From: Mycolicibacterium smegmatis
GTDB lineage: Bacteria > Actinomycetota > Actinomycetes > Mycobacteriales > Mycobacteriaceae
Reading direction: 5' to 3'
Length of the DNA stretch: 32,000 bases
NCBI RefSeq assembly: GCF_001457595.1
Contig: NZ_LN831039.1
Coordinates: 1,920,001 to 1,952,000 of the forward strand
Shown here in pieces: positions 780-31,342 of the stretch; position 1 is the first letter of the stretch, and each line of letters begins with the position of its first letter. Position numbers and translations under genes: made by a program. The notes beneath the pieces are model-generated. The model was not told the origin of the DNA. It saw nothing but the letters and a program-made list of their open reading frames with translations, and ran no database searches.

Positions 780-805
780 ATGCCCGGTATTCCGGGTCCC
801 GAAAC
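780..805 (-). promoter_or_regulatory. SigF-type promoter (near consensus) for the CsbD-like gene
   Basis: The minus strand reads GTTT(805-802)-N16-GGGCAT(785-780), about 65 nt upstream of ATG 715. It has the same GGGCAT -10 variant as the chaB promoter at 31273. Confidence 0.6.
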
Positions 806-847
806 GTGATCGGAAACGCGGCCCTGTGCATCGCCCGAGGTCGGAAG

Positions 848-871
848 GTTTGCCGGTCCACCAGATGGGTA
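848..871 (+). promoter_or_regulatory. SigF-type promoter, exact consensus, now separated from its gene by the IS
   Basis: GTTT(848-851)-N15-GGGTA(867-871) points right toward RBS-like GAAAGGA (891-897). The IS begins immediately after. Confidence 0.65.
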
Positions 872-912
872 CCAAACGAGCCAGGTGATCGAAAGGACTC
901 TCAATGAAGAAG

Positions 913-2121
913 TCAAGCCGCCGCGATGTTTGGGGGTGATTCAGGTTGCCAGGTCCGGTTGTCGCGGATGAGGGCGTAGAGAACGTTGGTGCGCCGTCGT
1001 GCCAGGCAGATGGTGGCGGGGATCGGCCGCTTTCCTTCGTCTCGTTTGCGCTGGTAGTAGGCCTTGGAATCTGGGTCGCAGCGGATCGCGGTCAACGCCG
1101 ACATGTACATGGCTCGGCGCAGTCGGCGACTGTAGCGCTTGGGGGTGTGCAGTCGTTCGGTGCGCTTTCTGGAGTCTCGAGACACTGGTGCCAGGCCGGC
1201 CCAGGCCGCGAGTTGGTCAGCCGATCCGATCAGTGCGGGATCACCGACGGCAGCGAGGAGTTCGGCGCCGAGTCGAAATCCCATGCCGGGCATACTGGTG
1301 ATCACCTCGGCGAGTGGATGGCGGCGAAATCGGCCCTCGATGTCGGCGTCGGTGGTCTTGATGCGGTCATCGAGGGCAATCACCTCCCGTGCCAGATCAG
1401 CGACCAACCCGGCGGCCACCTCTTCGCCGGGCAGACGCACCGTCTGGGTTTTCACCGCGGCCACCGCAGCCCCCGCGATCGAGGCGGCGTTGCGCACACC
1501 GGCATCGGTCAAGACTTTGGTCAGCCGCGAAACACCGCTTTGCCGAATCGCTTTGGGACGCTGGTAGCGCGCCAGCAATACCACCCAGCCACGGTCTTGG
1601 CTCAGTTGGGCGGCTCGTTCCAGGGCCGGGCAGACCGCGACGAGTTGTTGGCGCAGCCGGTTTATTGTGCGGGTGCGGTCGGCCACGAGGTCGGCGCGAT
1701 GGCCGGTGAGCATCCGCAACTCGCTGATCAAGTCATCATTGGGATGCAGAACGGGCAAGTCCTGCCCGCGCATCCGCGACTGGTCGGCGATCACCCGTGC
1801 ATCTTTGGCGTCGGTTTTGGCCTCCCCACCGCGGTAGGTCGCCGAGGCCTGCCACACCGCCCGGCCGGCCAGGTACCGGACCGTTTTGCCAGCGTCGGCC
1901 AGCACCGTCAACAACAGGGCGGCATACACCGTGGTCAGGTCCACCGCCCACAACACTCGCTCGGCCAGCTCGTCGATTTCAGCCACGAGCTCTCGGATCG
2001 GTTGCTCATCGTTAACCAACCGGCGCGACAACACCACCTTCCCGCTGTCGTCGACCACACATACCCAGTGATGCTCTTTACCGACATCCACTCCAGCCCA
2101 CACCTGGCCCGCCGCCATCAC
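913..2121 (-). CDS. IS110-family (DEDD-type) transposase/recombinase, 402 aa
   Basis: N-terminal VWAGVDVGKEHHWVCVVDDSGK...AVDL...TDAKDA (DEDD/RuvC-like) and C-terminal ITSMPGMGFRLGAELLAAVGD...AGLAPVSRDS are typical of IS110/IS900/IS1110 transposases. Start is GTG 2121 or ATG 2118. Confidence 0.9.
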   Translation of the reverse strand: MMAAGQVWAGVDVGKEHHWVCVVDDSGKVVLSRRLVNDEQPIRELVAEIDELAERVLWAVDLTTVYAALLLTVLADAGKTVRYLAGRAVWQASATYRGGEAKTDAKDARVIADQSRMRGQDLPVLHPNDDLISELRMLTGHRADLVADRTRTINRLRQQLVAVCPALERAAQLSQDRGWVVLLARYQRPKAIRQSGVSRLTKVLTDAGVRNAASIAGAAVAAVKTQTVRLPGEEVAAGLVADLAREVIALDDRIKTTDADIEGRFRRHPLAEVITSMPGMGFRLGAELLAAVGDPALIGSADQLAAWAGLAPVSRDSRKRTERLHTPKRYSRRLRRAMYMSALTAIRCDPDSKAYYQRKRDEGKRPIPATICLARRRTNVLYALIRDNRTWQPESPPNIAAA

Positions 2122-2362
2122 ACCTCTTTTCGCTTGTCTGCCAACATGATCCCCAAGGACAACCCCGCCAGCATTTCCTTAAACAAGCGATCACATCGCA
2201 GATCTCAATCAGCGGCCAGAGAAGTCCAGGCAGGCCGGGCGGCCAGTCCTTTCAAGCCGCACCAAGGGGCCGGCAACACACACCACAGCCACACCCGACC
2301 CACCCGGGTCACAGCCCAACGTAACTGCCTCAACAACACGAAGAAACTGCAACTACGAACTT
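2122..2362 (-). ncRNA. Candidate bridge-RNA-encoding 5' arm of the IS110 element
   Basis: 241-nt non-coding segment upstream of the recombinase inside the IS. It contains an inverted 9/9 copy (AGTCCTTTC, 2245-2253) of the left flank GAAAGGACT (891-899) and a direct AAGGAC (2155-2160). The assignment rests on analogy to IS110-family bridge RNAs. No structure was computed. Confidence 0.3.
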
Positions 2363-2372
2363 AAGGACTCAC

Positions 2373-3041
2373 ATGCTCGCTATCGCCGCTGAAGGTGTCT
2401 ACCGTCCGCAAGAAGACTCGCAGTTGCTCATCGATGCGCTGGAACGCAGTGGCGAGGTACCCGGCCGCCGCGTTCTCGATCTGTGTACGGGAAGCGGGGT
2501 TGTGGCGATCGCCGCCGCACACCTGGGTGCCGAACACGTGACCGCGCTGGACATCTGCCCGCGTGCCGTGGAATACGCCACGGCCAACGCCGCGGCGGCA
2601 GCAGCCGACGTGGACGTGAAGCTCGGCACCTGGAACGAGGCGCTCAACTGGGAGCCCTTCGATCTGGTCGTGTGCAACCCGCCGTACGTGCCCACCAGTC
2701 CTGCGGTCGATCCCGGCAGCGTGGCGCCGTGGGCCGGGCCCGCGACCGCCTGGGACGGCGGCGCGGACGGACGTATGATCCTCGACCCGCTGTGCGACGT
2801 GGCGGGTGCGATGCTCGCCGAGGGCGGCTCTCTGTTCCTCGTGCAGTCGGAATTCTCGGGTGTCGAGGAGTCCCTGACCCGCCTGAGCTGGAGCGGTCTC
2901 AAGACCGAGGTCGTCGTCACGCAGTCGATCCCGTGGGGTCCCGTGGTGACCGCCCAGGCGGAATGGCTGCGCGAAACCGGCCGGCTGCACGATGGTCGCG
3001 ACGACGAGGTGCTGGTGGTCATCCGAGCGGACAAGCCATGA
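2373..3041 (+). CDS. HemK2/Mtq2/N6AMT1-like class I SAM-dependent methyltransferase (222 aa)
   Basis: Contains EGVYRPQEDSQLLIDAL, LDLCTGSGVV (SAM motif I) and VVCNPPYVP (NPPY motif). ATG 2373 follows AAGGACTC. Confidence 0.8.
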   Translation: MLAIAAEGVYRPQEDSQLLIDALERSGEVPGRRVLDLCTGSGVVAIAAAHLGAEHVTALDICPRAVEYATANAAAAAADVDVKLGTWNEALNWEPFDLVVCNPPYVPTSPAVDPGSVAPWAGPATAWDGGADGRMILDPLCDVAGAMLAEGGSLFLVQSEFSGVEESLTRLSWSGLKTEVVVTQSIPWGPVVTAQAEWLRETGRLHDGRDDEVLVVIRADKP

Positions 3042-3253
3042 CCGCGCAGCGCAGGACCGTACAGATCACCGACCGCGGCCCAATGCTGGTCGAAGGCCCG
3101 GTGTGCATCGAACTGCCCGACGGGTCGAAGGTCGAATCGGACCGGTTCATGGTCGCGGTGTGCACATGCCGCCGCTCCAAGACCTACCCGTTGTGCGACA
3201 CGAGCCACCGCAAGCGGGTGAGGCCGGACAAGACGGCCAGACAGACCGCGTGA
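3038..3253 (+). CDS. CDGSH-type iron-sulfur domain protein (71 aa)
   Basis: CTCRRSKTYPLCDTSH fits C-x-C-x2-S-x3-P-x-C-D-(G)-S-H, with T replacing G. ATG 3038 overlaps the methyltransferase stop (ATGA). Confidence 0.7.
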   Translation: MTAQRRTVQITDRGPMLVEGPVCIELPDGSKVESDRFMVAVCTCRRSKTYPLCDTSHRKRVRPDKTARQTA

Positions 3254-3334: not shown

Positions 3335-4357
3335 TCAGTCGTCCAGGGGCCTGGTGAGCGAGCTGCGCTCGGCCGTCCAGCTCTTCATCAGATGATCGGC
3401 CAGGCGGTCTTCCAACGCGTCGAACGCGCGGATGCCGAACACCACGTCGGCGTCGAGTTCGGGTTCGCGCTCGACGAGGTCGCCGATCACGTTGAGCCGC
3501 ACCACCTGTTCGTGCACGGCGTCGGCCTCCACGTGCTCGGCGTAGAACCGCACACACGGCTCGGGGGCACCGAGGCGCTTCAGCGCGGCCGTCAGCCGCT
3601 GCGATCCCGGAGACGAGGTGATCTCGGTTGCCGCGAAATGCCCGGCAGCGGCCCCGCGGAGTTTGCGGTGCAGCCCGAACATCGACATCAGGTTCACCAG
3701 CGCGAGGGACTCGGCGGGTACGTGTCCGATGTAGCCGAGGTAGGTGGTGTCCAGGCCGGCCGCCTCCATCAGGTCGGCGAAGAGCTGCTGGTGCAGGTGG
3801 TTGCCGTGGCCGGCCCCGTATTCGTCGTACTCGATCGCCACAAACGACGCCTTCGCCTGACCGCCGATCCTGGGGATCAGCCACGCGTGCGGGTCACCCT
3901 CCTTGAGGTGATACAGCGAACGGTGTACGAAGTACTCCCGCATCTGCTCCCACGTGCCGTGGTCGCGCAGGAAGTAGGACGGCCCGGTGCCGTCCACCGG
4001 CTCGACGGACAACCGCTCCATCTCACTGGCTGCGGTGACGTCGGGCGGGATGGTGCCGATCTCCTTACGAACGGCCTCGAGGAAGACGCGTTCGAGCTGA
4101 GAGCGCAAGTGCAGGAGTCCGGCGCTCCACTCCCAGTCGGGGTCGACGCCGTCGAACCCGCGGTAGTGCAGTTCGTAACAGACGTACAGCGCGAGTTGGA
4201 TGTCCAGCCCCAGGGGGTCGGCGTCACGCAGCGGAACCCACACGGGTTCGAGGTGATTGTGCGGTGCACGGCCTTTGAGCTCGGATATCACCGCGGCCGA
4301 TATGCGGCCCTGGGCGTCGGGAAGCGGCGGTTGCAGGGTGGTCGGGATAGTCATCAT
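3335..4357 (-). CDS. Heme-oxygenase-like iron-containing redox enzyme family protein (340 aa)
   Basis: The MMTIPTT start is at 4357. EYDEYGAGHGNHLHQQLFADLMEAAGLD and FYAEHVEADAVHEQV resemble the Haem_oxygenase_2/CADD-like diiron family (by eye). The N-terminal 71 codons of the track ORF are trimmed. Confidence 0.7.
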   Translation of the reverse strand: MMTIPTTLQPPLPDAQGRISAAVISELKGRAPHNHLEPVWVPLRDADPLGLDIQLALYVCYELHYRGFDGVDPDWEWSAGLLHLRSQLERVFLEAVRKEIGTIPPDVTAASEMERLSVEPVDGTGPSYFLRDHGTWEQMREYFVHRSLYHLKEGDPHAWLIPRIGGQAKASFVAIEYDEYGAGHGNHLHQQLFADLMEAAGLDTTYLGYIGHVPAESLALVNLMSMFGLHRKLRGAAAGHFAATEITSSPGSQRLTAALKRLGAPEPCVRFYAEHVEADAVHEQVVRLNVIGDLVEREPELDADVVFGIRAFDALEDRLADHLMKSWTAERSSLTRPLDD

Positions 4358-4370
4358 ATTGCCCCCAGGA

Positions 4371-4394
4371 TTCCCATTTGTGCCTGCGGTAAAC
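4371..4394 (-). promoter_or_regulatory. SigF-like promoter (variant -10) for the heme-oxygenase-like gene
   Basis: The minus strand reads GTTT(4394-4391)-N15-GGGAAT(4375-4370). The ATG at 4357 lies 14 nt after the -10 A. Confidence 0.4.
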
Positions 4395-4613: not shown

Positions 4614-5108
4614 TCAGTTCAGGGTGCCCGGGGCGCCGGTCCCCTCGCCGTTGGTCGCGCGCAACGTGGTCTGGCGGCCGAGTGCGACGCCGAGACCGAT
4701 CATGAGCACCGCGAGCGCGAAGTGCAGCCAGTTGTCAGCGGAGTTCACCGGGACGAAGTTGGCCGAGCTGTGCGGATCGATCACGAGACCGTACAGCCAC
4801 AACACCGCGTAGATGATGCCGCCGACGATCAGGTAGAGGCGGGCCGACGAAGGCTTACGCGCCATGGCCAGACCGGCGACACCGAACGCCAGGTGGACCA
4901 GGTTGTGCAGGACCGACACCGCGAAGATGCCCAGCAGCATGGCCTCGGAGTGGTGACTCGCGAACGTGAGGTCACCGTAGTTGGAGGTCAGGCCCGGGAT
5001 GAAGCCCGCGATGCCGACCAGGAGGAAGACCGCTCCCACGATGAGCGCCGCCCACTGAAGGGGCGACCGGGCGGAGGTCCCGGGCCTCGTGGCGTGTGTT
5101 GAACTCAT
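4614..5108 (-). CDS. DUF4383-like four-helix membrane protein (164 aa)
   Basis: ATG 5108 follows GGGAAGG. LQWAALIVGAVFLLVGIAGFIPGL and three more hydrophobic helices. The family name is from recollection. The track ORF (to 5552) is trimmed. Confidence 0.75.
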   Translation of the reverse strand: MSSTHATRPGTSARSPLQWAALIVGAVFLLVGIAGFIPGLTSNYGDLTFASHHSEAMLLGIFAVSVLHNLVHLAFGVAGLAMARKPSSARLYLIVGGIIYAVLWLYGLVIDPHSSANFVPVNSADNWLHFALAVLMIGLGVALGRQTTLRATNGEGTGAPGTLN

Positions 5109-5185: not shown

Positions 5186-5210
5186 TACCCGGGCCGCCTT
5201 TCGGCGAAAC
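5186..5210 (-). promoter_or_regulatory. SigF-type promoter, exact consensus, for the DUF4383-like gene
   Basis: The minus strand reads GTTT(5210-5207)-N16-GGGTA(5190-5186), 78 nt upstream of ATG 5108. Confidence 0.7.
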
Positions 5211-5245: not shown

Positions 5246-5269
5246 TGTTTGGTGCTCCGACCCGGGGGT
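5246..5269 (+). promoter_or_regulatory. SigF-type promoter, exact consensus, for the P450 gene
   Basis: GTTT(5246-5249)-N15-GGGTA(5265-5269). ATG 5282 lies 13 nt after the -10 A and there is no SD. Confidence 0.7.
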
Positions 5270-5281
5270 AGCCCGCTGCGC

Positions 5282-6655
5282 ATGAATAACGGTGGACACC
5301 GGTTGCACGGTGCGCAGGCCCTTGCCACGTTGGTCGATCTCGGGTTCCCGGCGATCGCGTCGGGCGTGATCGCACGACGGCCTCCTGTGCTCGGGCTGCT
5401 CGAGCGGATGCAAGCCGACGAACGCGCAGGCAAGAGAATGCGCCGGCTGCGCAGCGAGTTCGGCCGGGGTCCCGTCGAACTGGTGATACCGGGTCGACGC
5501 ATCGTGGTGGTGACCGATCCCGAGGATGTCGGCGCGGTGCTGGCGCAGGCACCCGAGCCCTTCCACCCCGCCAACCGGGAGAAGCGCAAGGCCCTGCAGT
5601 GGTTCCAGCCGCACGGTGTCCTGATCTCTCAGGGCCCGATCCGCGAGCAGCGACGCGCGGTCAACGAGGCCGCACTGGACTCGGGTGCCGCGATGCACCG
5701 GTTGGCGGAATCGTTCGCGGCGAAGATCGCCGCCGAGGCGGACACTCTGGTCGCCAGGACCCTGCCGGGCCATCTCCTGGATGCCGACGAGTTCATGACC
5801 GCGTGGTGGCGGTTGGTCCGCCGGCTGACGCTGGGGGAGCGGGCCCGCGACGACCACGCGATCACCGACCAACTCGCGCGGCTGCGCCGAGCGGGCAACT
5901 GGTCGTTTCTGTCACTCCCGCACTACCGGGCACGTTCGCGGTTCTTGTCCCACCTCTACCGCTACGCCGAAGACCCCGAACCGGGCACGCTGGTCGGTGC
6001 GCTCGCCGACGTCCCGGCGAGCGGCGCGGTCGACCCCGTGGGTCAGATACCGCAGTGGCTCTTCGCCTTCGACGCGGCGGGCATGGCGTTGCTGCGGGCG
6101 CTCGCGGTACTGGCGACCCATCCATTGCAGCGCGATCGCGCGCTGGAGGACGCCGGCGAGCCGAACCGGCCGCTGCTGCGGCCCTACCTTCGAGGTTGTC
6201 TGCTCGAGTCGGTGCGGTTGTGGCCCACCACGCCGGCCATCCTGCGCGACACCACCGAGGACACCCACTGGCGTGACGGCGCCGAGCGCTTCACGGTTAC
6301 CAAGGGTGCGGGCCTGCTGATCGTGGCGCCCGCGTTCCACCGCGACGACCAGGTGCTGCCCTTCGCGCACGACTTCGTTCCCGAGATCTGGATCGACGGT
6401 CGGGCCCAGCTCTATCCGCAACTCGTCCCCTTCTCGGCGGGGCCCGCCGAATGCCCCGGGCGCAACCTGGTGCTGTTCACCACGAGCACGCTGGCGGCGA
6501 ATCTGTTGAACCGCTTGCACTTCGAAGTTCGGTCCGAGCCGCGGCCGGTGGCGGGCGAACCGTTGCCGATGACGTTCAACCACGCGGGCATCGAGTTCTC
6601 CCTGCGTCCCGCGCGGCGCGCGGTCACGGCGGCGACCGCGGATCCGGTGACGTGA
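5282..6655 (+). CDS. Cytochrome P450 (457 aa)
   Basis: Heme-ligand loop FSAGPAECPGRNL (FxxGxxxCxG) near the C-terminus, and typical P450 length. The start is set at ATG 5282 downstream of the promoter; the track starts at 5249. Confidence 0.85.
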   Translation: MNNGGHRLHGAQALATLVDLGFPAIASGVIARRPPVLGLLERMQADERAGKRMRRLRSEFGRGPVELVIPGRRIVVVTDPEDVGAVLAQAPEPFHPANREKRKALQWFQPHGVLISQGPIREQRRAVNEAALDSGAAMHRLAESFAAKIAAEADTLVARTLPGHLLDADEFMTAWWRLVRRLTLGERARDDHAITDQLARLRRAGNWSFLSLPHYRARSRFLSHLYRYAEDPEPGTLVGALADVPASGAVDPVGQIPQWLFAFDAAGMALLRALAVLATHPLQRDRALEDAGEPNRPLLRPYLRGCLLESVRLWPTTPAILRDTTEDTHWRDGAERFTVTKGAGLLIVAPAFHRDDQVLPFAHDFVPEIWIDGRAQLYPQLVPFSAGPAECPGRNLVLFTTSTLAANLLNRLHFEVRSEPRPVAGEPLPMTFNHAGIEFSLRPARRAVTAATADPVT

Positions 6656-6686: not shown

Positions 6687-7616
6687 CTACGGCGAACGGC
6701 GTGGAACGGCGATGCGCGCCAGGTCATCCGCCACCACGAGCTCCCCGTCGTAAACCTCGGCCGCCTCCTCGAAGTGACGTTGCGTATCGCCGTAGCGTTG
6801 TGAGAAATGGGTCAGCACGAGTTTCCTCACGTGACACTCTGCTGCCACGCGCGCGGCCTGACGTGCGGTCAGGTGGCCGTATTTCAATGCGAGACCGGCA
6901 TGTTCGTTGAGGAATGTCGACTCGATCACCAACATGTCGGTGTCCTCTGCGAGCGCGTACACCGCGTCGCACAACCGGGTGTCCATCACGAAGGCGAACC
7001 GCTGCCCGGGCCGGGGCTCGCTGACCTGGGCGAGGTGCACAACCTCGGGGCCTGGGCCCGTGTCCGTGCTCACCCGGATCGTTCCCTCGCGCTGCAACTC
7101 TCCGACGGCCGGTCCGTGAATCCCATACAGCGCCAGCAGATCTGAGCGCATGCGCCGAGAGTCGGGTTCGGTCAACCGATAGCCGATCGAATCGACGGAA
7201 TGATCGAGCCTGCGCGCTTCAAGGGTTCCGAACGCACCGAAGGCGACCGGTCCGTCCGCCTCCACCGGATGTTCCCGGACGTCGACGGTGTCGTGGAACG
7301 CGCTTGCGTTGCGCAAACGGTTGAAGAACTCCTGCCCCGAGGCGGGGTAGTGGGCCGCGACCGGATGCGCGACGTGATCGAGCGACATGCGTTGCACGAT
7401 GCCCGGAACCCCGAGGCAGTGATCGCCGTGGAAGTGGGTCAGGCACAGGTGCGTGACCGAACTCGCCGAGACACCCGCCAGCAGCATCTGGCGTTGGGTG
7501 CCCTCGCCGGGATCGAACAGGAAGCCCTCGTCGTCCCAGCGCAACAGGTATCCGTTGTGATTGCGCAGCCGTGTCGGAACTTGGCTCGCGGTACCGAGGA
7601 CGACCAGCTCGCGCAT
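6687..7616 (-). CDS. RNase Z-like metallo-beta-lactamase-fold hydrolase (309 aa)
   Basis: [25 protein letters not shown]...[11 protein letters not shown]...[14 protein letters not shown] (HxHxDH) and the C-terminal [10 protein letters not shown] are typical of RNase Z/ElaC. Start is ATG 7616. Confidence 0.75.
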
Positions 7617-7680
7617 CGACACCCCTTCGACACTACGGCTCTGCCGGGGCCTACCAGCGCCCTGGCGCGGCCATCTTGGA

Positions 7681-7938
7681 TCAGCCGCCGAGGTTCGCCA
7701 CGGCGGCCTCCAACTTGGCGGCCTCTTCTTCGAGTTCGTGGTCGGAGAGATCCGCGCCCCGGTCGCCACCCGATCTGCCCAGATCGGAGCGAGTGGCCAC
7801 CTGCAGGGCCCCGCGGTACTCGTCGGTCTCGAGTTCGGTCGCCGGGATCACGGCGGTGCGTCCCTGTATGAGAACCAGGACAGCGTCAGGCGCGTCGGCC
7901 TCCAGCAGTCGGCGCACGTCGTCCGCGGAGATCGTCAT
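7681..7938 (-). CDS. Small acidic hypothetical protein (85 aa)
   Basis: ATG 7938 follows GGTGAGGAG. GC3-rich codons. It lies 64 nt upstream of the RNase Z-like gene and is probably co-transcribed. The track ORF 7681..8544 is trimmed. Confidence 0.55.
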
Positions 7939-8042
7939 GTCGGTGCTCCTCACCTGGGAATTCAGCCGGATCGGTTCGGTTGCGGGCCCTGGGGACCCGC
8001 TCAGGTATGCCCGTTTCCCGCGCGCTCGAAGCGCACCCCCGG

Positions 8043-23985: not shown

Positions 23986-25277
23986 AGGTGGGCGTCGTCG
24001 GAGTCGGCTACGTGGGATTGACCACCGCGGTCTGCCTCGCCGAGCGCTCCCACGACACCGTGTGCATCGACATCGACGAGAACCGCGTGCGGCAACTGTC
24101 CTCCGGCATCACACCGATCGACGAGCCCGGTCTTCCAGAACTGCTCGAGGCCGGACTGCGGCACGCGACGCTGCGATTCAGCAGTGACATCGGGGCGCTC
24201 GCCGATCGCCAGGTGGTGTTCGTGTGTGTTCCCACGCCCAGCGGCGACGACGGGTCGGCGGACCTGCGCGCGGTCGACGACGTCGTGGAGGGCGTCGCGC
24301 GGGTCGGTGCGGCAGGAGCGGTACTCGCGATGAAGTCGACAGTGCCGGTGGGAACCACGCGCCGGGTCGAAAACCGGCTGCGCGAGGTTGGAATCCACGC
24401 GGTGTCCAACCCGGAGTTCCTGCGGGAGAGCCACGCCGTCTACGACTTCCGCCACCCCGACCGGATCCTGATCGGGTCTGATGACGAGGCGGCGGCAGAC
24501 GTCGTGGCTCGGGTGTACGGCGAGACGGCCCGGGAAACGGCGATGCGCATGAGCCCCGAGAGCGCCGAGCTCGCGAAGTACGCCAGCAACGCATTCTTGG
24601 CATTGAAGGTCTCGTATGCCAACTCGCTGGCCCAGCTGTGCGCACATGCCGGTGCAGACATCGGCGACGTCGTGCGGTGCATGGGCGCCGACGTCCGGAT
24701 CGGACCGCACTTCCTGCAACCGGGCCCGGGGTGGGGCGGATCGTGTCTGCCCAAGGACACCGCGGCGCTGCTGCACACCGGTCGCCGCTACGGCGTCGAT
24801 CTCCCCGAGGTGTCCTCGGCGTGTGCGACCAACCGCGCGCAGGCCGCTCGGATCATCGCCGTGCTGCAGCGCAACATGTCCGCTCCCATTGCCACCGCGC
24901 GTGTGGCGGCACTCGGCCTGACGTTCAAGGCCGGCACGTGCGACATCCGGGACTCGCCCGCGTTGGCGGTGTGCGAGGAGATGGCGCGCGCGGGCGCCCA
25001 GATCAACGGTTACGACCCGCGACTGGAGATGATCGACCACGCCGTGCTGCGTCGCTCCTCGGTGGCCGCGGTGGACGACCCCTACCTCGCGACCAAGGAC
25101 GCCGACGGCATCGTCATCTTCACCGAATGGCCCGAATTCCGCGATCTGAACTGGTCGAGGATCGCCGATCAGGCACCGGGCGCGGTGGTGGTGGACACCC
25201 GCAACCTGCTCGACCCCGATTCGGTGAAGGCCCGCGGTCTGACATACCTCGGCAACGGCAGACCCGCGGGGTTCTGA
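23982..25277 (+). CDS. UDP-glucose 6-dehydrogenase family (431 aa)
   Basis: VKVGVVGVGYVGLTTAVCLA (Rossmann), NPEFLRES and GWGGSCLPKD (catalytic Cys). GTG 23982 overlaps the previous stop (GTGA). Confidence 0.85.
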   Translation: MKVGVVGVGYVGLTTAVCLAERSHDTVCIDIDENRVRQLSSGITPIDEPGLPELLEAGLRHATLRFSSDIGALADRQVVFVCVPTPSGDDGSADLRAVDDVVEGVARVGAAGAVLAMKSTVPVGTTRRVENRLREVGIHAVSNPEFLRESHAVYDFRHPDRILIGSDDEAAADVVARVYGETARETAMRMSPESAELAKYASNAFLALKVSYANSLAQLCAHAGADIGDVVRCMGADVRIGPHFLQPGPGWGGSCLPKDTAALLHTGRRYGVDLPEVSSACATNRAQAARIIAVLQRNMSAPIATARVAALGLTFKAGTCDIRDSPALAVCEEMARAGAQINGYDPRLEMIDHAVLRRSSVAAVDDPYLATKDADGIVIFTEWPEFRDLNWSRIADQAPGAVVVDTRNLLDPDSVKARGLTYLGNGRPAGF

Positions 25278-25280
25278 GCG

Positions 25281-26297
25281 TCAGCCGCGCGCCATCCTCC
25301 GGATCAACCGGGCAGTCGCGCGGTCCAGCACGGACTGACGCTCATCGGCAGACCGCGTGCGCGCGGCGCGGCGCACCGCGGACTCGATCGTGATGCCGTT
25401 GCGGTAGGCCTGCACCACCCGTGGGTCGACGTAGGCACTGCGCGCGACCGCAGGGGTGTTCCCGAGCCCTTCGGAGACCTCCCGCATCACCGCCGACTCG
25501 ACGCGCTTGACCACTTTGGGGTCCACCGGCGGATCGGCATCGACGAACGCCTCGGCGGCCAGCACCGTGCCGTGCCAGGTACGCAGGTCCTTGACCGTGT
25601 AGTCTTCACCGACCATCTCTTTGAAGCGAAGATTGAGGTCGTCGGCGTGGACCTCCACCCAGTCCGCCGATTCCTGGTACGCCAGAAAACGTTCCCCGCG
25701 CTTGCGGTGTCGCTGCAGGGCCCGCACGGCACGGACCACGTCGTCGTCCTCGACGAGCAACGTACGCCGTACCCCGCTCTTCGCCGGATAGTCGAACTCC
25801 ACTCCGTCGCGGCCCACGCTCACGTGCTCGCACTGCAGTGTCGCGATACCGAACGAATTGTTCTCCTCGGCGTATCTCTCACCGCCCGCACGGAAGTATC
25901 CGAGGTCGAGCAGACGCAGCCCCAGCGCCAGCACCCGATCGCGGCGCAGGCCTCGCCGGGCGAGATCGGCTGCCACGTGCTGTCGCCAATCATGAAGCCC
26001 TGCAGACATTTCCAGTACGCGGTCGAATTTCTCCTCACTGCGTTCCTGTTGCCACTGCGGGTGGTACAGGTACTGGCGCCTGCCTGCGACATCGGTGCCG
26101 ACAGCCTGGATGTGCCCGGAAGCATGCGGGCAGATCCAGACCGCCTTCCAGGCCGGGGGGATGACGAGATCGTCGATGCGCTGCAGCACCTTGCGATCAG
26201 TTACCGCCTGCCCGTCGGGCTTTCGATAGCTGAAGCCTCGGCCCCTGCGGATCCGCTTGATCCCGGGGCCGTCGACGACGCTTCGACGCAGCCGCAT
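25281..26297 (-). CDS. Bacterial poxvirus-like type IB DNA topoisomerase (338 aa)
   Basis: FSYRKPDG...DLVIPPAW..VWICP...GHIQAVGTDVAGRRQYLYHP, YTVKDLRTWHGT and LGNTPAVARSAYVDP (candidate catalytic Tyr). Pattern matched by eye. Confidence 0.75.
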   Translation of the reverse strand: MRLRRSVVDGPGIKRIRRGRGFSYRKPDGQAVTDRKVLQRIDDLVIPPAWKAVWICPHASGHIQAVGTDVAGRRQYLYHPQWQQERSEEKFDRVLEMSAGLHDWRQHVAADLARRGLRRDRVLALGLRLLDLGYFRAGGERYAEENNSFGIATLQCEHVSVGRDGVEFDYPAKSGVRRTLLVEDDDVVRAVRALQRHRKRGERFLAYQESADWVEVHADDLNLRFKEMVGEDYTVKDLRTWHGTVLAAEAFVDADPPVDPKVVKRVESAVMREVSEGLGNTPAVARSAYVDPRVVQAYRNGITIESAVRRAARTRSADERQSVLDRATARLIRRMARG

Positions 26298-26316: not shown

Positions 26317-26342
26317 GTTTAGTGCCCGCGTAGGCACGGGTA
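26317..26342 (+). promoter_or_regulatory. SigF-type promoter, exact consensus, for the RsbW-like gene
   Basis: GTTT(26317-26320)-N17-GGGTA(26338-26342), followed by AGGAG (26349-26353). Confidence 0.6.
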
Positions 26343-26352: not shown

Positions 26353-26973
26353 GTGACGCGGGTGGGCCCTCGGGCAGGAGACGGTGAAGAGGTTCGCCGG
26401 TTGTCCCTGGGCGGCAATCCGAAATGGATGGGGCTGCCGTCATCGCAGCGGCCGCCGATCACGATGGTTCATCCCGAGCGGTTACCCGGTGCCCCGGCGC
26501 CGTACACCGTCGACCGGCGTCGTGTGGTGGTCGAGGTCCCGGCGCGCGAGGCGATGCTCGTGACGCTACGCAACATTCTCGGGGCGATCGCGACCTTCGA
26601 GGGCCTGGACAGTGACGTGGTCGCCGACCTGTGCCTGGCGGTGGACGAGGCGTGCGCGGTGCTGATCAACGCGGCCGCGCCGGACTCGCTGGTGTCTCTC
26701 GACATCGTCGCGGACGCACAGATGCTCGTCGTCGACGCGTCAACCACATGTTCACGTCCTGAGGACGCGGGCCTCGGTCGCTTCAGTGAGCGTGTGCTGT
26801 CGGCGCTGACCGATGAGGTCGGCACGTTCGCGGCGGCGGCCGACACGGCGAACAGCACAGAAGACGATCCCGGAAGCAGCCCCGAAAACGGCACGGACCC
26901 CCGAGGGGTGTTCGGGATATCCCTGACCACCCGACGGAGGCCGCCGACCGCTTCTGACCCGGTGTCGGACTAA
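26353..26973 (+). CDS. RsbW/UsfX-like anti-sigma factor paralog
   Basis: VVVEVPAREAMLVTLRNILGAIATFEGLDSDVVADLCLAVDEAC parallels the RsbW fragment at 31866 (SVEIRVAAMLENLAVVRTVVAAIATFEDLDFDVV). The start is uncertain (GTG 26353/26362, ATG 26428/26464). No DxGxG ATP-lid motif was seen. Confidence 0.75.
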   Translation: MTRVGPRAGDGEEVRRLSLGGNPKWMGLPSSQRPPITMVHPERLPGAPAPYTVDRRRVVVEVPAREAMLVTLRNILGAIATFEGLDSDVVADLCLAVDEACAVLINAAAPDSLVSLDIVADAQMLVVDASTTCSRPEDAGLGRFSERVLSALTDEVGTFAAAADTANSTEDDPGSSPENGTDPRGVFGISLTTRRRPPTASDPVSD

Positions 26974-27410
26974 GTGTTCTCCACCAGTTGCAGTGGTCGT
27001 TGATCGCTCTTGCGGGACAACGCCGACGCAACGTCGGGAGAGGTGGTCAGCCCGGAGTCCGGATCACAGATGCGGAGCACCCGTGTGACGGCCTTGCTCG
27101 GCACCACCACCCACTCGGCGTCGGCCCCGGCGCACCGCACATTGAGAGTGTGCAACGTGGTGAAACACGCAGCTCCGAAGAAGGCGACATCGCTCAGGTC
27201 GAGCACGAGTTTCGTGTTCCGTGTGAGGGCCTTCAGGGCATAGTCGGTGAGGAGGCCTGCATTGGAGGCATCCAGGTCGCCGTGAACTGTCACGACGGCG
27301 GTCGTGGTGTTGATCCGTTCGGTGGTGAAATGCGCGTGTTGTCGTGCATGGCTGCCGCTGTGAGGACTACTCCTCTTGGCAACGCTGATTGTGGGCATGT
27401 GTGACTCCAT
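26970..27410 (-). CDS. STAS-domain anti-sigma-factor antagonist (RsfA-like) (146 aa)
   Basis: AVVTVHGDLDASNAGLL...KLVLDLSDVAFFGAACFTTL is a SpoIIAA/RsbV-like fold pattern. Its stop overlaps the convergent RsbW-like stop (CTAA). Confidence 0.75.
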   Translation of the reverse strand: MESHMPTISVAKRSSPHSGSHARQHAHFTTERINTTTAVVTVHGDLDASNAGLLTDYALKALTRNTKLVLDLSDVAFFGAACFTTLHTLNVRCAGADAEWVVVPSKAVTRVLRICDPDSGLTTSPDVASALSRKSDQRPLQLVENT

Positions 27411-27872
27411 CAGTAGAAAACACGATTCGTACTGCAGTCACGTCACTCAGGCTCTGCTCGCTCAAAGCCCCCGGGCGCAGGGTGTGCTGGCCTGCACGTC
27501 GATGACGATTCCAGCTGGCTGTGAACTCAACCTGGGTCGAACTTTACGCCAGATCGTTACCATCGACAATTGCGTTGGCTCGGTTCTCATAAAACAATCA
27601 GCAACGCCCGTGCGGCCCGCCGAAGTCGCGAAAGTTGTTGCGGCAGAAACAACATTAGTTTGCCAACAGGCGACGAGCACGTGTCGTCCCGCTTATACCG
27701 GATTGCTGTCGCGCGCGTCGGCGTTATCGGGGAACATGCGTCCGGAGCCACCGAAACCGGCGGTCATCCGCCTGTGGCGGGTTTTGCTGGCGTGGTCGGT
27801 GGCGCCCCGGACCGACTTCCGACGCGCCACGGTTCGACGCATCGGCGTGCGACATCCGTGTTCGCCGACTTG

Positions 27873-27897
27873 GTTTGGTACTCGAAGTGTCCGGGTA
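27873..27897 (+). promoter_or_regulatory. SigF-type promoter, exact consensus, for the small-protein operon
   Basis: GTTT(27873-27876)-N16-GGGTATCCG(27893-27901). ATG 27908 lies 11 nt after the -10 A. Confidence 0.7.
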
Positions 27898-27907
27898 TCC
27901 GGGCCGC

Positions 27908-28141
27908 ATGAGATTCGGTGGCTTGTTCGGAACGCTAGTTCTCATCTGGTTGCTGATCGGAGTTCTGGCCGCGTGGCAACGCGACTATTTCCAGAACGGC
28001 ACAACCGATTGCGCGACAGCGGGCCAAACTGCGCTCACTGTGTTGGCCGGACCGCTCAACTATGCCGGCGTCAACCCGAAGGTGGGCGAGTGCCGCCTGC
28101 CCGAACCCAGTGCGATGCCCGTCATCGCCAACCTGAAGTGA
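27908..28141 (+). CDS. Small membrane-anchored hypothetical protein (77 aa)
   Basis: MRFGGLFGTLVLIWLLIGVLAAW is a TM helix, followed by a Cys-containing tail. Start is at ATG 27908; the track starts at 27875. Confidence 0.6.
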   Translation: MRFGGLFGTLVLIWLLIGVLAAWQRDYFQNGTTDCATAGQTALTVLAGPLNYAGVNPKVGECRLPEPSAMPVIANLK

Positions 28142-28148
28142 GGTCGTC

Positions 28149-28304
28149 ATGATTGTCTTCGGAGCGATTCTGCTCATCCTCGGCCTGGTGCTGAACATCT
28201 ACTGGCTGTGGGTCGTCGGCGTGATCTTGATGGTCGTCGGCGCGGTGTTCTGGCTGCTCGGCTCCATCGGGCGCCCGGTCGGTGGCCGCCGGGCCTGGTA
28301 TTAG
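28149..28304 (+). CDS. Unlisted small two-helix membrane protein (51 aa)
   Basis: Translated by hand and absent from the ORF track: MIVFGAILLILGLVLNIYWLWVVGVILMVVGAVFWLLGSIGRPVGGRRAWY*. It starts 7 nt after the upstream stop and has GC3-rich codons. Confidence 0.5.
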   Translation: MIVFGAILLILGLVLNIYWLWVVGVILMVVGAVFWLLGSIGRPVGGRRAWY

Positions 28305-28340
28305 GCGCACGCGAACAAGACGCACCGTAGGAGCTGAACG

Positions 28341-28598
28341 ATGCCGAATTCATCGATCAAGGACGAGAAGCTCTACCAGGACCTGCGTAAGCAGGGCGAC
28401 TCGAAGGAGAAGGCCGCGCGCATCTCCAACGCGGCGGCTTCCCGAGGCCGCTCCAAGGTCGGGCGCTCGGGCGGCAAGTCCGGATCCTATGAAGACTGGA
28501 CTGTGTCCGACCTGCGCAGTCGTGCGAAAGAACTTGGGATCACCGGATATTCCGACAAGAACAAGGGTGAGTTGGTGAAGATGCTCAGGAGTCACTGA
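28341..28598 (+). CDS. Small basic protein with C-terminal Rho_N/SAP-like domain (85 aa)
   Basis: A TAGGAG SD precedes ATG 28341. The N-terminus is IKDEKLYQDLRKQGDSKEKAARISNA. The C-terminus is WTVSDLRSRAKELGITGYSDKNKGELVKML (Rho termination factor N-terminal-like helix-extended-helix). Confidence 0.75.
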   Translation: MPNSSIKDEKLYQDLRKQGDSKEKAARISNAAASRGRSKVGRSGGKSGSYEDWTVSDLRSRAKELGITGYSDKNKGELVKMLRSH

Positions 28599-28629
28599 GC
28601 GTTCCCTCCGCCCCGAAAAACCCCGCACG

Positions 28630-28662
28630 AAGGGCCCCGCTGATCAACTCAGCGGGGCCCTT
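28630..28662 (+). terminator. Hairpin terminator after the small-protein operon
   Basis: Perfect 14-bp stem AAGGGCCCCGCTGA / TCAGCGGGGCCCTT with a TCAAC loop, 32 nt after the stop at 28598. Confidence 0.65.
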
Positions 28663-28771
28663 CCCCGTTGTTCTGAGGTTGATCGCCGTTCGGCCCCTCA
28701 TGAGGACAAATCGTTCTAACGTGGGAAGCAGCCCCGAATGCCAGGGCGGAGCAATGGCGGAAGGAGCAGCC

Positions 28772-29080
28772 ATGAAAGGCCCAAAGGATCCTGTCGATCA
28801 TGCTCGGACGACACGGCCACATGCCGGGGAGTCGATGAAGGACAACATGATCATGCCTGCGCTGATCGTGATCGGCCTGGCGCTGGTGACGTTCGTCGGA
28901 TCCCTCGCCGCGTTCGCCACCAGCCACCATGATGTCGGACTGACCCTGGTGAGCCTCGCGGCCGCCGGGTTCGTCATCGGAGCTTTGTGGCTGGCGCTCG
29001 AGCACCTGAGGGTGCGTCGTATCGAAGATCGTTGGTACGCAGAGCATCCCGGGGTGATGAGGCAAGGCCCCAGCAGCTGA
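28772..29080 (+). CDS. UsfY-like small membrane protein, paralog 3 (102 aa)
   Basis: ATG 28772 follows GGAAGGAG. MKGPKDPVDHARTTRPHAGESMKD, two hydrophobic helices, and EHLRVRRIEDRWYAEHPGVMRQ. The track ORF starts at 28679. Confidence 0.8.
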   Translation: MKGPKDPVDHARTTRPHAGESMKDNMIMPALIVIGLALVTFVGSLAAFATSHHDVGLTLVSLAAAGFVIGALWLALEHLRVRRIEDRWYAEHPGVMRQGPSS

Positions 29081-29135: not shown

Positions 29136-29486
29136 TCAGAAGGTCAGAGCCAGAACGATGAAGTCGATCGCCAGCAACGCCAGCCCGATGATCGGCACCA
29201 GGATGCCGCGCCGGGCACGCGCGGTGAACACCGTCAGCGCGATCACCACGACCGGGACCACCGGAGCGCCGTAGAACAGCACTCCGAACCAGAACTCGCC
29301 CGGACCCTGATTCGCGCACGCATCGTCGGCGCACCCGGCCATGCTCATGACCGCGCCCATGCCGTACAGGAACACCGCCACGGCGGCCGGAATCGTCAGC
29401 AGAGCCAGCACCCACGTCGCCGAGATCCGTGTCTTGCGGCCGGTCTCGGTCTGCTCGATCTGTGCCTTGCTCGTGTTCGGGGTCAT
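29136..29486 (-). CDS. Hypothetical integral membrane protein (116 aa)
   Basis: ATG 29486. Three hydrophobic helices (WVLALLTIPAAVAVFLYGMGAV, FWFGVLFYGAPVVPVVVIALTVF, ILVPIIGLALLAIDFIVLALTF). The track ORF (TTG 29582) is trimmed. Confidence 0.55.
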   Translation of the reverse strand: MTPNTSKAQIEQTETGRKTRISATWVLALLTIPAAVAVFLYGMGAVMSMAGCADDACANQGPGEFWFGVLFYGAPVVPVVVIALTVFTARARRGILVPIIGLALLAIDFIVLALTF

Positions 29487-29502: not shown

Positions 29503-29526
29503 GTTTCGCGGCCCGGTGCACGGGTA
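29503..29526 (+). promoter_or_regulatory. SigF-type promoter, exact consensus, for the LLM oxidoreductase gene
   Basis: GTTT(29503-29506)-N15-GGGTATCCG(29522-29530). ATG 29537 lies 11 nt after the -10 A. Confidence 0.7.
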
Positions 29527-29536: not shown

Positions 29537-30523
29537 ATGACGAGATTCGGATACACGCTGATGACCGAGCAGAGCGGGCCAAAAGATCTTGTGCGTTACG
29601 CCGTCGCGGCGGAGCAGGCGGGATTCGATTTCGAGGTGTGCAGTGACCACTTCTCGCCCTGGCTGACCAGCCAGGGGCACGCCCCGAACGCGTGGGCGGT
29701 GCTCGGGGCGGTCGCGCACGCCACCGAATCGGCGCACCTGTATTCGTACGTCACCTGCCCGACGATGCGCTATCACCCGGCCGTCGTGGCCCAACAGGCC
29801 GCGACCGTGCAGATCCTCTCCGACGGGCGGTTCACGCTGGGACTGGGCAGCGGTGAGAACCTCAACGAACACGTCGTCGGCAAGGGTTGGCCGACCGTCG
29901 AACGGCGTCTCGACATGCTGGCCGAGGCCATCAAGATCATCCGGGAGTTGTTCACCGGCGAACTCATCGACTTCCGGGGCGAGTACTTCGAGGTCGATTC
30001 GGCGCGGATCTGGGATGTCCCCGACGAACCGGTCGGCATCGGCGTCTCACTGACAGGCGAGAGGGCCCTCGACAAACTCGCGGTCTCGACGGACCACCTG
30101 ATCAACGCCGCGCCGGACGCGGCGGTGGTCGAGGGATGGCGCAAGCGCCGTGAGGCCACCGGAATACTGCCCGCGGGCCGCGTGGTCGGACAGATACCGG
30201 TGTGCTGGGATCCCGACAAGGACGCCGCCATCGCCCGCGCACACGATCAGTTCCGGTGGTTCGCCGGCGGGTGGGCGGTGAACGCCGACCTGCCCACCCC
30301 GGCCGGTTTCGCGGCCGCGACACAGTTCGTGCGGCCCGAGGACGTCGCGTCGGCCATTCCCTGCGGTCCCGACCTCGACGCGATCGTCGCCGCCGTCGAC
30401 GAGTACCGCCAGGCGGGCTTCACCGATATCGCGCTGATCCAGATCGGTGGCGACAGCCAGGAGCAGTTCCTTGCCGAGGCCGCCAAGCCGCTACTCGCGG
30501 CGCTGCGCGAGAGTGCCGGGTGA
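29537..30523 (+). CDS. Luciferase-like monooxygenase (LLM) class, F420-dependent G6PDH-family-like oxidoreductase (328 aa)
   Basis: MTRFGYTLMTEQSGPKDLVRYAVAAEQAGFDFEVCSDHFSPWL and FTLGLGSGENLNEHV resemble the F420-dependent glucose-6-phosphate dehydrogenase family (by eye). The track ORF starts at 29429. Confidence 0.75.
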   Translation: MTRFGYTLMTEQSGPKDLVRYAVAAEQAGFDFEVCSDHFSPWLTSQGHAPNAWAVLGAVAHATESAHLYSYVTCPTMRYHPAVVAQQAATVQILSDGRFTLGLGSGENLNEHVVGKGWPTVERRLDMLAEAIKIIRELFTGELIDFRGEYFEVDSARIWDVPDEPVGIGVSLTGERALDKLAVSTDHLINAAPDAAVVEGWRKRREATGILPAGRVVGQIPVCWDPDKDAAIARAHDQFRWFAGGWAVNADLPTPAGFAAATQFVRPEDVASAIPCGPDLDAIVAAVDEYRQAGFTDIALIQIGGDSQEQFLAEAAKPLLAALRESAG

Positions 30524-31054
30524 GGCGGCCGTCGAGCCGGGACGACCGCCCATGGGCTGCCCCGACCGCATGGTGAACGGCCAGACGATCCAACAACCCA
30601 CGAACACAACCAGTGCCACCGCACCCGCGGTGAATCCGGCCGGGCGGCCGGCGACGGTGTCGAAGATGATCAGCACCACGCCCGCCATCGCGAACCCCAG
30701 CAACAGCAGTCCCGCGTAGGCGCAGCGGTGTGCCGCGGTCACCACGAGATTCATCCGGTGACGCCGGAACACCATGCGGTGCATGGCAACCGGAGCCACG
30801 AGCAGCGCGGTGGATCCGGCCGAGCACGCGACGGTGATCAGGAAGACCGTGCGCATGGTCCCGTCGAGAACGTCGAACTCCTCCTGGAACGGCAGGGTCA
30901 ACAGCAGGCCGGTGAGTAGCTGGACGCCCGTCTGCACCACACGGAGTTCCTGCAACAGGTTGTTCCAGTTACGGTCGAGCCGTTCGGCCTCGGTCTCGTT
31001 GCGCGCCACCCCGGGAGGCCGTTTGTCGTCGTGGGCGCGCATGTGGTCGATCAT
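30491..31054 (-). CDS. DUF6328-like membrane protein (187 aa)
   Basis: RNETEAERLDRNWNNLLQELRVVQTGVQLLTGLLLTLPF followed by further TM helices. Start is ATG 31054 or 31042. The 3' end overlaps the convergent LLM gene by 33 nt. The family name is from recollection. Confidence 0.65.
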   Translation of the reverse strand: MIDHMRAHDDKRPPGVARNETEAERLDRNWNNLLQELRVVQTGVQLLTGLLLTLPFQEEFDVLDGTMRTVFLITVACSAGSTALLVAPVAMHRMVFRRHRMNLVVTAAHRCAYAGLLLLGFAMAGVVLIIFDTVAGRPAGFTAGAVALVVFVGCWIVWPFTMRSGQPMGGRPGSTAASPGTLAQRRE

Positions 31055-31109
31055 GCATCGCCGACGACGAACCCGGTACAAAAGGCGCGTTTCCGGGTAC
31101 GTCTGAGGT

Positions 31110-31241
31110 ATGGACGGCGGTTCGCCGCACATGCTGCGGCGCCTTCTCATCTCACTGGCGCTGATTCTGGCCGTGGTGATCGCGATCGTCGCAGCGGTGT
31201 ACGCGATGGCGTTCATCATGCTCGCCCCGATGATGACCTGA
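31110..31241 (+). CDS. Possible unlisted small membrane protein (43 aa)
   Basis: Translated by hand: MDGGSPHMLRRLLISLALILAVVIAIVAAVYAMAFIMLAPMMT*. GC3-rich. An alternative start is ATG 31131. It lies just upstream of the chaB promoter. Confidence 0.3.
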   Translation: MDGGSPHMLRRLLISLALILAVVIAIVAAVYAMAFIMLAPMMT

Positions 31242-31252
31242 GGTGGTCGAGG

Positions 31253-31277
31253 GTTTCCCGAATGCCGACGTTGGGCA
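31253..31277 (+). promoter_or_regulatory. SigF-type promoter (near consensus) upstream of chaB-rsbW
   Basis: GGTTTC(31252-31257)-N-GGGCAT(31273-31278), with 16 nt between GTTT and GGG. Autoregulated SigF promoters upstream of the sigF operon are described in mycobacteria. Confidence 0.65.
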
Positions 31278-31342
31278 TCCGGTGGGGCGGACAGCGGAAT
31301 CGATACATGAAGACGTGAGGGACCCGAGAGGAAGTGGTCACG

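Follow-up and report, generated by a model that had tools for sequence, protein, structure and literature searches.

The window analysed here is a stretch of 32,000 nucleotides (nt) from the Mycolicibacterium smegmatis contig NZ_LN831039.1 (assembly GCF_001457595.1, positions 1,920,001 to 1,952,000 of the forward strand), and the system in question is the set of promoters that it carries for SigF, a group-3 sigma factor. With a probability of about 0.93, we read the window as the stress gene cluster next to sigF, in which 13 motifs are read by RNA polymerase carrying SigF and two of these drive an ancestral cluster of glycan genes that was deleted in the model strain mc2155. A pattern search for GTTT-N15-17-GGGTA gave ten exact matches, all at the places where an earlier inspection of the letters alone, here called the sequence-only reading, had put them, and the three near matches that it had named are also present, with GGGCA at 781-805(-) and 31253-31277(+) and GGGAA at 4371-4394(-). 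Two of its coordinates were off by one nucleotide and should read 5247-5270(+), not 5246-5269, and 781-805(-), not 780. Its central claim, that the dense SigF-type promoters form a SigF regulon island beside sigF, is borne out by the identity of the locus and by the dependence on sigF published in Singh 2015.

Work in mc2155 has established that RsbW1 sequesters SigF, that RsfA, RsfB and RsbW3 set it free, and that free SigF guides RNA polymerase to GTTT/GGGTA promoters. The mechanism proposed for the window is built on the same parts. RsfA, RsfB and RsbW3 would free SigF from the anti-sigma factor RsbW1, upon which about 13 transcription units within 32 kb would fire together from promoters with a -35 element GTTT, a spacer of 15-17 nt and a -10 element GGGTA, of which GGGCA and GGGAA would be weaker variants. 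Two of the units, chaB-rsbW1-sigF and rsbW3, would provide positive feedback, while the sites 12039(+) and 15199(-) would drive glycosyltransferases of an ADP-heptose-type cluster that is ancestral at this position in mycobacteria, deleted in mc2155 and partly decayed here.

The window spans the orthologues of MSMEG_1768 to MSMEG_1803 and comes from a strain that differs from mc2155. It is 100% identical to the M. smegmatis contig JBDQEF010000001.1 (GCA_039889265.1) and 99.7-99.99% identical to other M. smegmatis assemblies, including MKD8 (CP027541) and CP082846, and the gene map used here consists of the genes called on identical contigs, with their precomputed Pfam families. At the right edge, the called gene chaB (31343-31762(+), orthologue of MSMEG_1802) is followed by rsbW1, which starts at 31866, and then by sigF just outside the window. 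Pfam identifies a partner-switching set at the locus, with two HATPase_c_2 domains (26362-26973 and from 31866), both of which are flagged as weak matches, a STAS domain (26970-27398), and the Sigma70_r2, r3 and r4 domains just past the window. The left HATPase_c_2 gene, which runs from 26353 or 26362 to 26973(+), is the RsbW-like rsbW3 (orthologue of MSMEG_1787), and the STAS gene at 26970-27398(-) is rsfA (orthologue of MSMEG_1786), whose product is an antagonist of the anti-sigma factor.

Deletion of sigF in mc2155 lowers the expression of almost all genes between MSMEG_1766 and MSMEG_1804, by log2 3-6 (Singh 2015, PMC4694148, Table 1). The motifs, spacers and, approximately, the distances listed in that study agree with nine of the sites found by the pattern search, in line with the expectation of the sequence-only reading that some of the promoters were probably known. 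The SigF-type promoter GTTT-N16-GGGCA at 781-805(-) lies 65 nt from the start of a csbD-like gene (473-715(-)), whose orthologue MSMEG_1770 is listed with N16-GGGCA at 64 nt and changes by log2 -5.9/-3.3 in the mutant. The site GTTT-N15-GGGTA at 848-871(+) corresponds to the entry for MSMEG_1771 (N15-GGGTA at 29 nt) and belongs to a methylase-CDGSH operon (2373-3253), from which it is now split off by an insertion sequence (IS). The Haem_oxygenas_2-family gene at 3335-4357(-) has the SigF-type promoter GTTT-N15-GGGAA at 4371-4394(-), with the ATG 13 nt past the -10, and its orthologue MSMEG_1773 is listed with N15-GGGAA at 11 nt. For the DUF4383 gene at 4614-5108(-), the site GTTT-N16-GGGTA at 5186-5210(-), 77 nt from the start, matches the entry for MSMEG_1774 (N16-GGGTA at 64 nt), and for the cytochrome P450 gene at 5282-6655(+), the site GTTT-N15-GGGTA at 5247-5270(+), which is of the leaderless type with the ATG 11 nt past the -10, matches that for MSMEG_1775 (N15-GGGTA at 9 nt). 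Further to the right, GTTT-N16-GGGTA at 8043-8067(+) lies 72 nt from the start of a UsfY-like gene (8140-8445(+); MSMEG_1777, N16-GGGTA at 69 nt), and GTTT-N15-GGGTA at 12006-12029(-) serves a small acidic open reading frame (ORF) and the SDR/Nramp operon (MSMEG_1778-1782, N15-GGGTA at 221 nt). The two sites that flank the regulatory genes are GTTT-N17-GGGTA at 26317-26342(+) for rsbW3 (MSMEG_1787, N17-GGGTA at 56 nt), a promoter also given in Oh 2020, and the SigF-type GTTT-N16-GGGCA at 31253-31277(+) for chaB-rsbW1-sigF (MSMEG_1802, N16-GGGCA at 63 nt), 65 nt from the start of chaB.

A strong decrease in the sigF mutant is also given for the orthologues MSMEG_1788-1790 and MSMEG_1794 (-5.6/-5.7 for MSMEG_1794), which are listed with another, weaker motif (PMC4694148). 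These genes are fitted better by two exact sites in the window, GTTT-N16-GGGTA at 27873-27897(+) for three small genes (27908-28598) and GTTT-N15-GGGTA at 29503-29526(+) for a luciferase-like oxidoreductase gene (29537-30523(+), orthologue of MSMEG_1794), both with an ATG 10 nt past the -10. Together with the nine motif matches, the reduced expression of these genes means that the targets of 11 of the 13 sites are sigF-dependent, as judged from their mc2155 orthologues. A weaker SigF-type site is seen in the sequence in tandem with 29503(+), at 29473/29475-29498(+), and another, GTGT-N16-GGGTA at 26483-26507(-), is located inside rsbW3 and precedes the topoisomerase IB gene (25281-26297(-)) by 185 nt, in agreement with the same motif listed at 183 nt for its orthologue MSMEG_1784 in Singh 2015. 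The exact motif recurs upstream of the methylase orthologue (site 848) in 6/6 other species and at 22 of the 32 UsfY-family loci of other species, and a relaxed form of it is found upstream of the Haem_oxygenas_2-family orthologue in 6/7 loci and of the topoisomerase IB orthologue in 13/13 loci. No SigF motif is found upstream of rsfA.

The primary paper on the SigF regulon is reportedly Humpel et al. 2010. The stress response gene cluster MSMEG_1766-1802 has been in the literature since 2010 (PMC5445863), Singh 2015 flags the genes that it has in common with Humpel et al. (PMC4694148), and MSMEG_1777 and MSMEG_1782 serve as marker genes of the SigF regulon (Oh 2020, PMC7693655). The gene that the sequence-only reading had taken for a second anti-sigma paralog is actually that for RsbW3 (MSMEG_1787), whose dependence on SigF is published and which, rather than binding SigF, binds RsbW1 and antagonises this anti-sigma factor (PMC7693655). 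It has GTTT-N17-GGGTAA upstream, its expression is lost in the sigF mutant, and it has been described as a positive-feedback booster (PMC7693655). Earlier work thus already covers the island, the targets of 11 of the 13 sites and what RsbW3 does, and among the features that had been said to deserve attention, the density and RsbW3 were both published, which leaves the link to glycan genes as the unpublished one.

Eleven of the sites lie in the correct orientation and at most about 80 nt upstream of a start codon, as had been stated for all of them, while this did not hold for 848(+) and 12006(-). The distance from 848(+) is 33 nt to the ancestral ATG, but a 1,462-bp IS110-family element now lies between the two, and the start codon that had been assigned to this site probably belongs to a spurious ORF at 946-2364(+), antisense to the transposase. 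From 12006(-), the distance is 230 nt to the SDR gene, yet just 11 nt to ATG 11994 of the 67-codon ORF. For two other sites there are better starts than those used at first, namely 12074 for 12039(+), which shortens the distance from 65 to 11 nt, and GTG 26353 for 26317(+), which shortens it from 19 to 10 nt.

An alignment of the 13 sites on the -10 shows an in-frame start codon 10-13 nt past the -10 at eight of them (4371, 5247, 12006, 12039, 15199, 26317 with GTG 26353, 27873 and 29503), whereas the five remaining sites (781, 848, 5186, 8043 and 31253) have leaders of 33-77 nt. This layout suggests that the eight units give leaderless mRNAs. Transcription starts in mc2155 were taken from the log-phase, high-confidence set in the available part of the supplement to Martini et al. 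2019 (PMC6448022), and three of them fall behind sites in the window. The start for csbD (MSMEG_1770; 1859173, 56 nt upstream of the gene start) corresponds to window position 771, the 10th nucleotide after the -10 A, and that for chaB (1880670, 54 nt upstream) corresponds to 31289, the 12th nucleotide after the -10 A. The start for MSMEG_1783 (1868518, 33 nt inside the annotated gene) corresponds to 11994, also the 12th nucleotide, and since it falls on the A of ATG 11994, the message should be leaderless. These mapped starts at 10-12 nt do not agree with the 6-9 nt between the -10 and the start that the sequence-only reading had expected, and a spacing of about 9-13 nt fits them. In the same set, rsfA has a strong start (1870904, window ~27532), and the start of the third UsfY paralog (orthologue of MSMEG_1791, 28772) corresponds to 28730, behind a SigA-like TAACGT. 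Unlike UsfY-family genes elsewhere in the window, this one has no SigF motif upstream (28700-28772), and the SigA-like start agrees with the 2010 report that the MSMEG_1791 copy is not co-regulated (PMC5445863). For hypoxia, Martini et al. 2019 count 56 induced starts with SigF motifs at high confidence and 96 putative ones (PMC6448022).

The other two sites have no counterpart in mc2155 and were identified by the pattern search and by the cross-species motif. They are putative SigF-type promoters of the form GTTT-N15-GGGTA, one at 12039-12062(+) for the glycosyltransferase genes GT1 and GT4, and one at 15199-15222(-) for GT2, with the ATG 12 nt past the -10. We counted the exact SigF motif within ~250 nt upstream of each orthologue at 80 loci from other mycobacteria, which were obtained by a scan of one genome per species and include both fast and slow growers. 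Of the operon heads, GT2 is preceded by the motif in 79/80 loci and GT1 in 60 of 73. At genes internal to the operons, it is seen upstream of the GT2-HAD fusion in 0/70 loci, the first GT9 (GT9a) in 0/68, the SIS isomerase in 0/64, HldE in 0/65, the SDR (230 amino acids) in 0/64, the second GT9 (GT9b) in 0/65, the sugar dehydrogenase in 0/58, GT4 in 1/75 and the carbamoyltransferase in 4/74. The information content of the alignment columns is high at GTTT, at GGGTA and at the ATG 10-13 nt later only, while spacers and flanks vary, and the GT1 orthologues have a conserved ATG 10-11 nt after the -10. Judged from these alignments, the conservation pattern is a clear phylogenetic footprint of what would be functional promoters, and we infer that 12039(+) and 15199(-) are under SigF control. 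As a correction to the sequence-only reading, which had stressed the inclusion of glycan genes, only three of the twelve are preceded by a SigF motif here, with pseudogenes making up two of the three, and the nine-gene operon has no recognisable SigF promoter.

Several observations weigh against our interpretation of the window. The SigF studies all used mc2155, a strain without 12039(+) and 15199(-). No SigF motif is found upstream of the nine-gene operon at 15236(+), where the 49-nt gap holds the GT2 promoter only, and in other species the exact motif precedes the epimerase gene at the head of this operon in just 24/71 loci. GT1 and GT4 are pseudogenes here, and therefore 12039(+) serves no intact gene, while transcription from 848(+) has to cross 1.46 kb of the IS before it arrives at the operon. 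For 10 of the 13 sites, there is no start among the log-phase, high-confidence mc2155 starts in the available part of the supplement, and the lone log-phase start of MSMEG_1773 in this set corresponds to window position 4536, away from the GGGAA site at 4371. Finally, the starts were placed in the window by their distance from the annotated gene starts, with no alignment to mc2155.

These points bear on the strongest of the alternatives, namely that some of the sites, notably the glycan promoters and the GGGAA and GGGCA variants, use another sigma factor or an extra activator, so that their dependence on SigF is indirect or absent. The displaced start of MSMEG_1773 would be in keeping with this, 12039(+) and 15199(-) are known from their sequence alone, and GGGTA promoters of Streptomyces are cross-recognised by several sigma factors that resemble SigB (PMC8346170). 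However, the glycan sites have the exact consensus and are indistinguishable from their validated neighbours, and 12039(+) is placed back to back with the validated 12006(-). M. smegmatis is not known to have more than a single group-3 sigma factor of the SigF type. For these reasons we regard the use of another sigma factor as improbable, and direct recognition by SigF as the better explanation also for the glycan promoters.

That the motifs are excess copies produced by chance or by the base composition of intergenic DNA can be dismissed almost entirely. Short degenerate motifs do arise in this way, as exemplified by the intragenic relaxed matches at 16812 and 19216, but dinucleotide-preserving shuffles of the window gave a mean of 0.09 exact matches and a maximum of 2, against the 10 observed, in agreement with the claim of the sequence-only reading that fewer than one was expected. 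The relaxed pattern has 15 matches against 1.24 expected, which comprise the 10 exact matches, the 3 near matches and 2 extra ones. Intergenic DNA, 2,613 nt in all, holds all ten exact sites against 0.03 expected, and coding or IS sequence, with 29,387 nt, holds none against 0.26 expected. A site is present in 10 of the 19 gaps between genes that measure 30 nt or more, all 13 sites point towards a gene, and their positions are kept in ~80 species. The two extra relaxed matches, 16812(+) and 19216(+), were rejected as promoters, as they are intragenic and two such matches are in line with the chance expectation. The latter lies upstream of GT9a, where no orthologue has the motif, and the former is 956 nt from the next start, too far for the test on sequences upstream of orthologues. 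It is just as hard to believe that the sites are copies of a dispersed MITE- or REP-like repeat that holds GTTT and GGGTA, for although the 13 sites include three divergent pairs, which might reflect a palindromic element, their spacers and flanks are unrelated, only the boxes and the ATG are conserved across species, and a scan of the window against Rfam matched no RNA family.

The density of the sites can be compared with the rest of the genome. By our count, the genome-wide table of Singh 2015 contains ~31 distinct exact-consensus promoters, 6 of which lie within this ~25 kb of 7 Mb, which gives a roughly 50-fold enrichment. The next 5.4 kb on the right, with sigF and genes past it, contain no exact site. 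The homologous loci in other species have a mean of 6.2 exact sites per 32 kb, and the density of the island is therefore conserved.

The glycan genes form a cluster of twelve at ~12074-25277, as assigned by Pfam on the called genes and by NCBIfam. They start with GT1 (12074-13045(+), Pfam) and the MshA-like GT4 (13062-14284(+), Pfam and NCBIfam), followed by GT2 (14290-15186(-), Pfam) and by a nine-gene heptose operon (15236-25277(+), Pfam and NCBIfam). The order in the operon is an epimerase/dehydratase, a NodU-like carbamoyltransferase, a GT2 fused to a GmhB-like phosphatase, a GT9, a GmhA-like isomerase, an HldE-like enzyme of the kinase/nucleotidyltransferase type, an SDR of 230 amino acids, a second GT9 and a nucleotide-sugar dehydrogenase. 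Four types of ADP-heptose enzymes are recognised by their Pfam domains (SIS; PfkB with CTP_transf_like; HAD; and Glyco_transf_9, which is found twice). The NCBIfam scores fall under the equivalog cut-offs, with 185 versus 276 bits for GmhA, 120 versus 178 for GmhB and 51-72 versus 135-185 for the heptosyltransferases, and therefore heptose chemistry is likely but unproven. The cluster contains no transporter gene.

Three of the genes carry lesions in this strain. GT1 has a nonsense codon at 12233-12235 (codon 36 counted from 12128), GT4 is frameshifted by a 1-bp deletion near 13320, and the HldE-like gene has a 2-bp deletion near 21329. All three are intact in MKD8 and in several further assemblies, and in this lineage the cluster seems to be undergoing decay. 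The same cluster is found in the same order in 58-76 of the 80 loci from other mycobacteria, and in several of these the SDR-Nramp operon adjoins it, as in the window. This synteny implies that the cluster is ancestral here and that the arrangement in mc2155 is a derived loss. Among the GTDB species representatives, the best relative of the GT2 gene is from M. wolinskyi, with 78% identity, and the representative genome of M. smegmatis therefore appears to lack the cluster. Some of the loci L027-L106 have a second exact SigF motif on the opposite strand, ~60-90 nt upstream of GT2, that faces the epimerase/heptose operon. This second motif occurs in about a third of the species, mainly slow growers, and is not present in M. 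smegmatis or its close relatives. SigF control of the nine-gene operon thus varies within the genus. A literature search for the glycan cluster or for its control by SigF returned nothing, which is a weak negative given the partial coverage of journals.

The loss in mc2155 was placed with the help of published coordinates, as far as these were available, and of a deletion-type contig, L021. In mc2155, MSMEG_1783 (1868321-1868551) and MSMEG_1784 (1868641-1869657) are separated by 89 nt according to these coordinates, whereas their orthologues in the window are 13.3 kb apart. Most M. smegmatis assemblies carry the cluster (window 12030-25298), while mc2155 and contig L021 are without it. Contig L021, which has the arrangement of mc2155, diverges from the window exactly at the -35 of 12006(-) and rejoins it at ~25298. 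The deletion-type allele has another near-motif on the plus strand, GTCT-N15-GGGTA, directed antisense into the topoisomerase gene, and on the strand opposite to that gene mc2155 has an annotated ORF that overlaps it, MSMEG_1785. Two further differences emerge from the same published coordinates. The gap between the orthologues of MSMEG_1776 and MSMEG_1777 (7623-8139) is ~380 nt longer than in mc2155 and includes an 85-codon ORF (7681-7938), and the ~6 kb segment MSMEG_1795-1801 of mc2155 is missing from the window between the DUF6328 gene and chaB (31052-31342).

The element next to site 848(+) is an IS110-family insertion sequence of 1,462 bp (901-2362(-)), delimited by comparison with the empty site, and its transposase (913-2118) contains the Pfam domains DEDD_Tnp_IS110 (PF01548) and Transposase_20 (PF02371). 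The insertion precisely separates the ribosome-binding site GAAAGGA from the ATG of the methylase gene. Both of its junctions (893-900 and 2363-2370) have the 8-bp sequence AAGGACTC, and thus the methylase gene retains a ribosome-binding site. The empty site is kept in contig L003, and the element is also absent from mc2155, where MSMEG_1770 and MSMEG_1771 are just 188 nt apart by the published coordinates available, while MKD8 and CP082846 carry the element. Inside the IS, a near motif GTTT-N15-GGGTT is located at 2161-2184(-), 42 nt upstream of the transposase start.

Several other genes complete the map. A UsfY-like gene at 105-404(+) lies at the left end and is one of three UsfY paralogs in the window. 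The methylase-CDGSH operon consists of a methyltransferase gene (2373-3041(+), orthologue of MSMEG_1771) and a zf-CDGSH gene (3038-3253(+), orthologue of MSMEG_1772), and a metallo-beta-lactamase fold gene is called at 6687-7622(-). The SDR/Nramp operon has five called genes (8454-11775(-)) for an SDR, a protein of 154 amino acids, an Nramp protein and proteins of 132 and 113 amino acids. Ahead of it, the sequence contains the small acidic ORF of 67 codons (ATG 11994 to stop 11791(-)), and with this ORF the operon corresponds to MSMEG_1783-1778. The gap from rsfA to the next SigF unit (27399-27907) is unusually long, with 509 nt, and AT-rich around 27570-27670. It is followed by small called genes at 27908-29080(+), the first three of which are the orthologues of MSMEG_1788-1790, by a gene for a protein of 116 amino acids (29136-29486(-)) and, past the luciferase-like gene, by the DUF6328 gene (30491-31051(-)).

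The regulon, the consensus, the clustering by sigF and the role of RsbW3 have all been published, and the main finding has little weight as a discovery. It does serve as a positive control, in that a reading based on raw DNA recovered a real regulon. The new content is modest and consists of the conserved SigF promoters before the glycan cluster, the leaderless layout and the strain-specific lesions. Given the conserved start codon 10-13 nt past the -10, many SigF promoters may drive leaderless messages, and the IS insertion and the three pseudogenes point to a decay of the island in cultured lineages. We also entertain, as a tentative idea that we would not yet favour, that the 12-gene ADP-heptose-type cluster could be an ancestral and genus-wide part of the SigF regulon, and that its product could be an undescribed stress-induced glycoconjugate or a soluble glycoside. 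Under this proposal, the glycan part would have been overlooked because the SigF regulon was studied only in mc2155, where the cluster is deleted. A cluster that is missing from the model strain offers a concrete set of genes to examine in relation to the changes of the mycobacterial cell surface that have been reported for SigF without an explanation.

The mycobacterial IS110-family elements IS900 and IS901 insert between the ribosome-binding site and the start codon. The element in the window resembles them in its DEDD-type transposase, in its insertion between the ribosome-binding site and the ATG, and in the short sequence with a ribosome-binding site at both junctions, but differs in that its transposase runs opposite to the target gene. 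The SigF cluster of mc2155 (MSMEG_1766-MSMEG_1804) and the window share orthologous genes in the same order with sigF directly downstream, an autoregulatory chaB promoter and a SigF-dependent rsbW3, while the window adds the 13.3 kb glycan cluster with two exact sites and the IS110-family element.

In Bacillus subtilis, SigB controls a general stress regulon with a partner-switching module. The two systems have in common the GTTT/GGGTA promoters, an RsbW anti-sigma factor, STAS antagonists, a csbD-family target and an autoregulated sigma operon. However, the spacer is about 12-15 nt in B. subtilis and 15-17 nt here, and the targets are scattered there, whereas here they are packed by the sigma gene, with many layouts of the leaderless type. 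A further difference is that the RsbW paralog RsbW3 here antagonises the anti-sigma factor (PMC7693655). Similar to the window, the usfY-usfX-sigF locus of Mycobacterium tuberculosis (cited in PMC7693655) contains an operon of an anti-sigma factor gene and sigF with a SigF-type promoter, and UsfY-family genes upstream, but the M. smegmatis island is far larger, with ~13 promoters and three UsfY paralogs.

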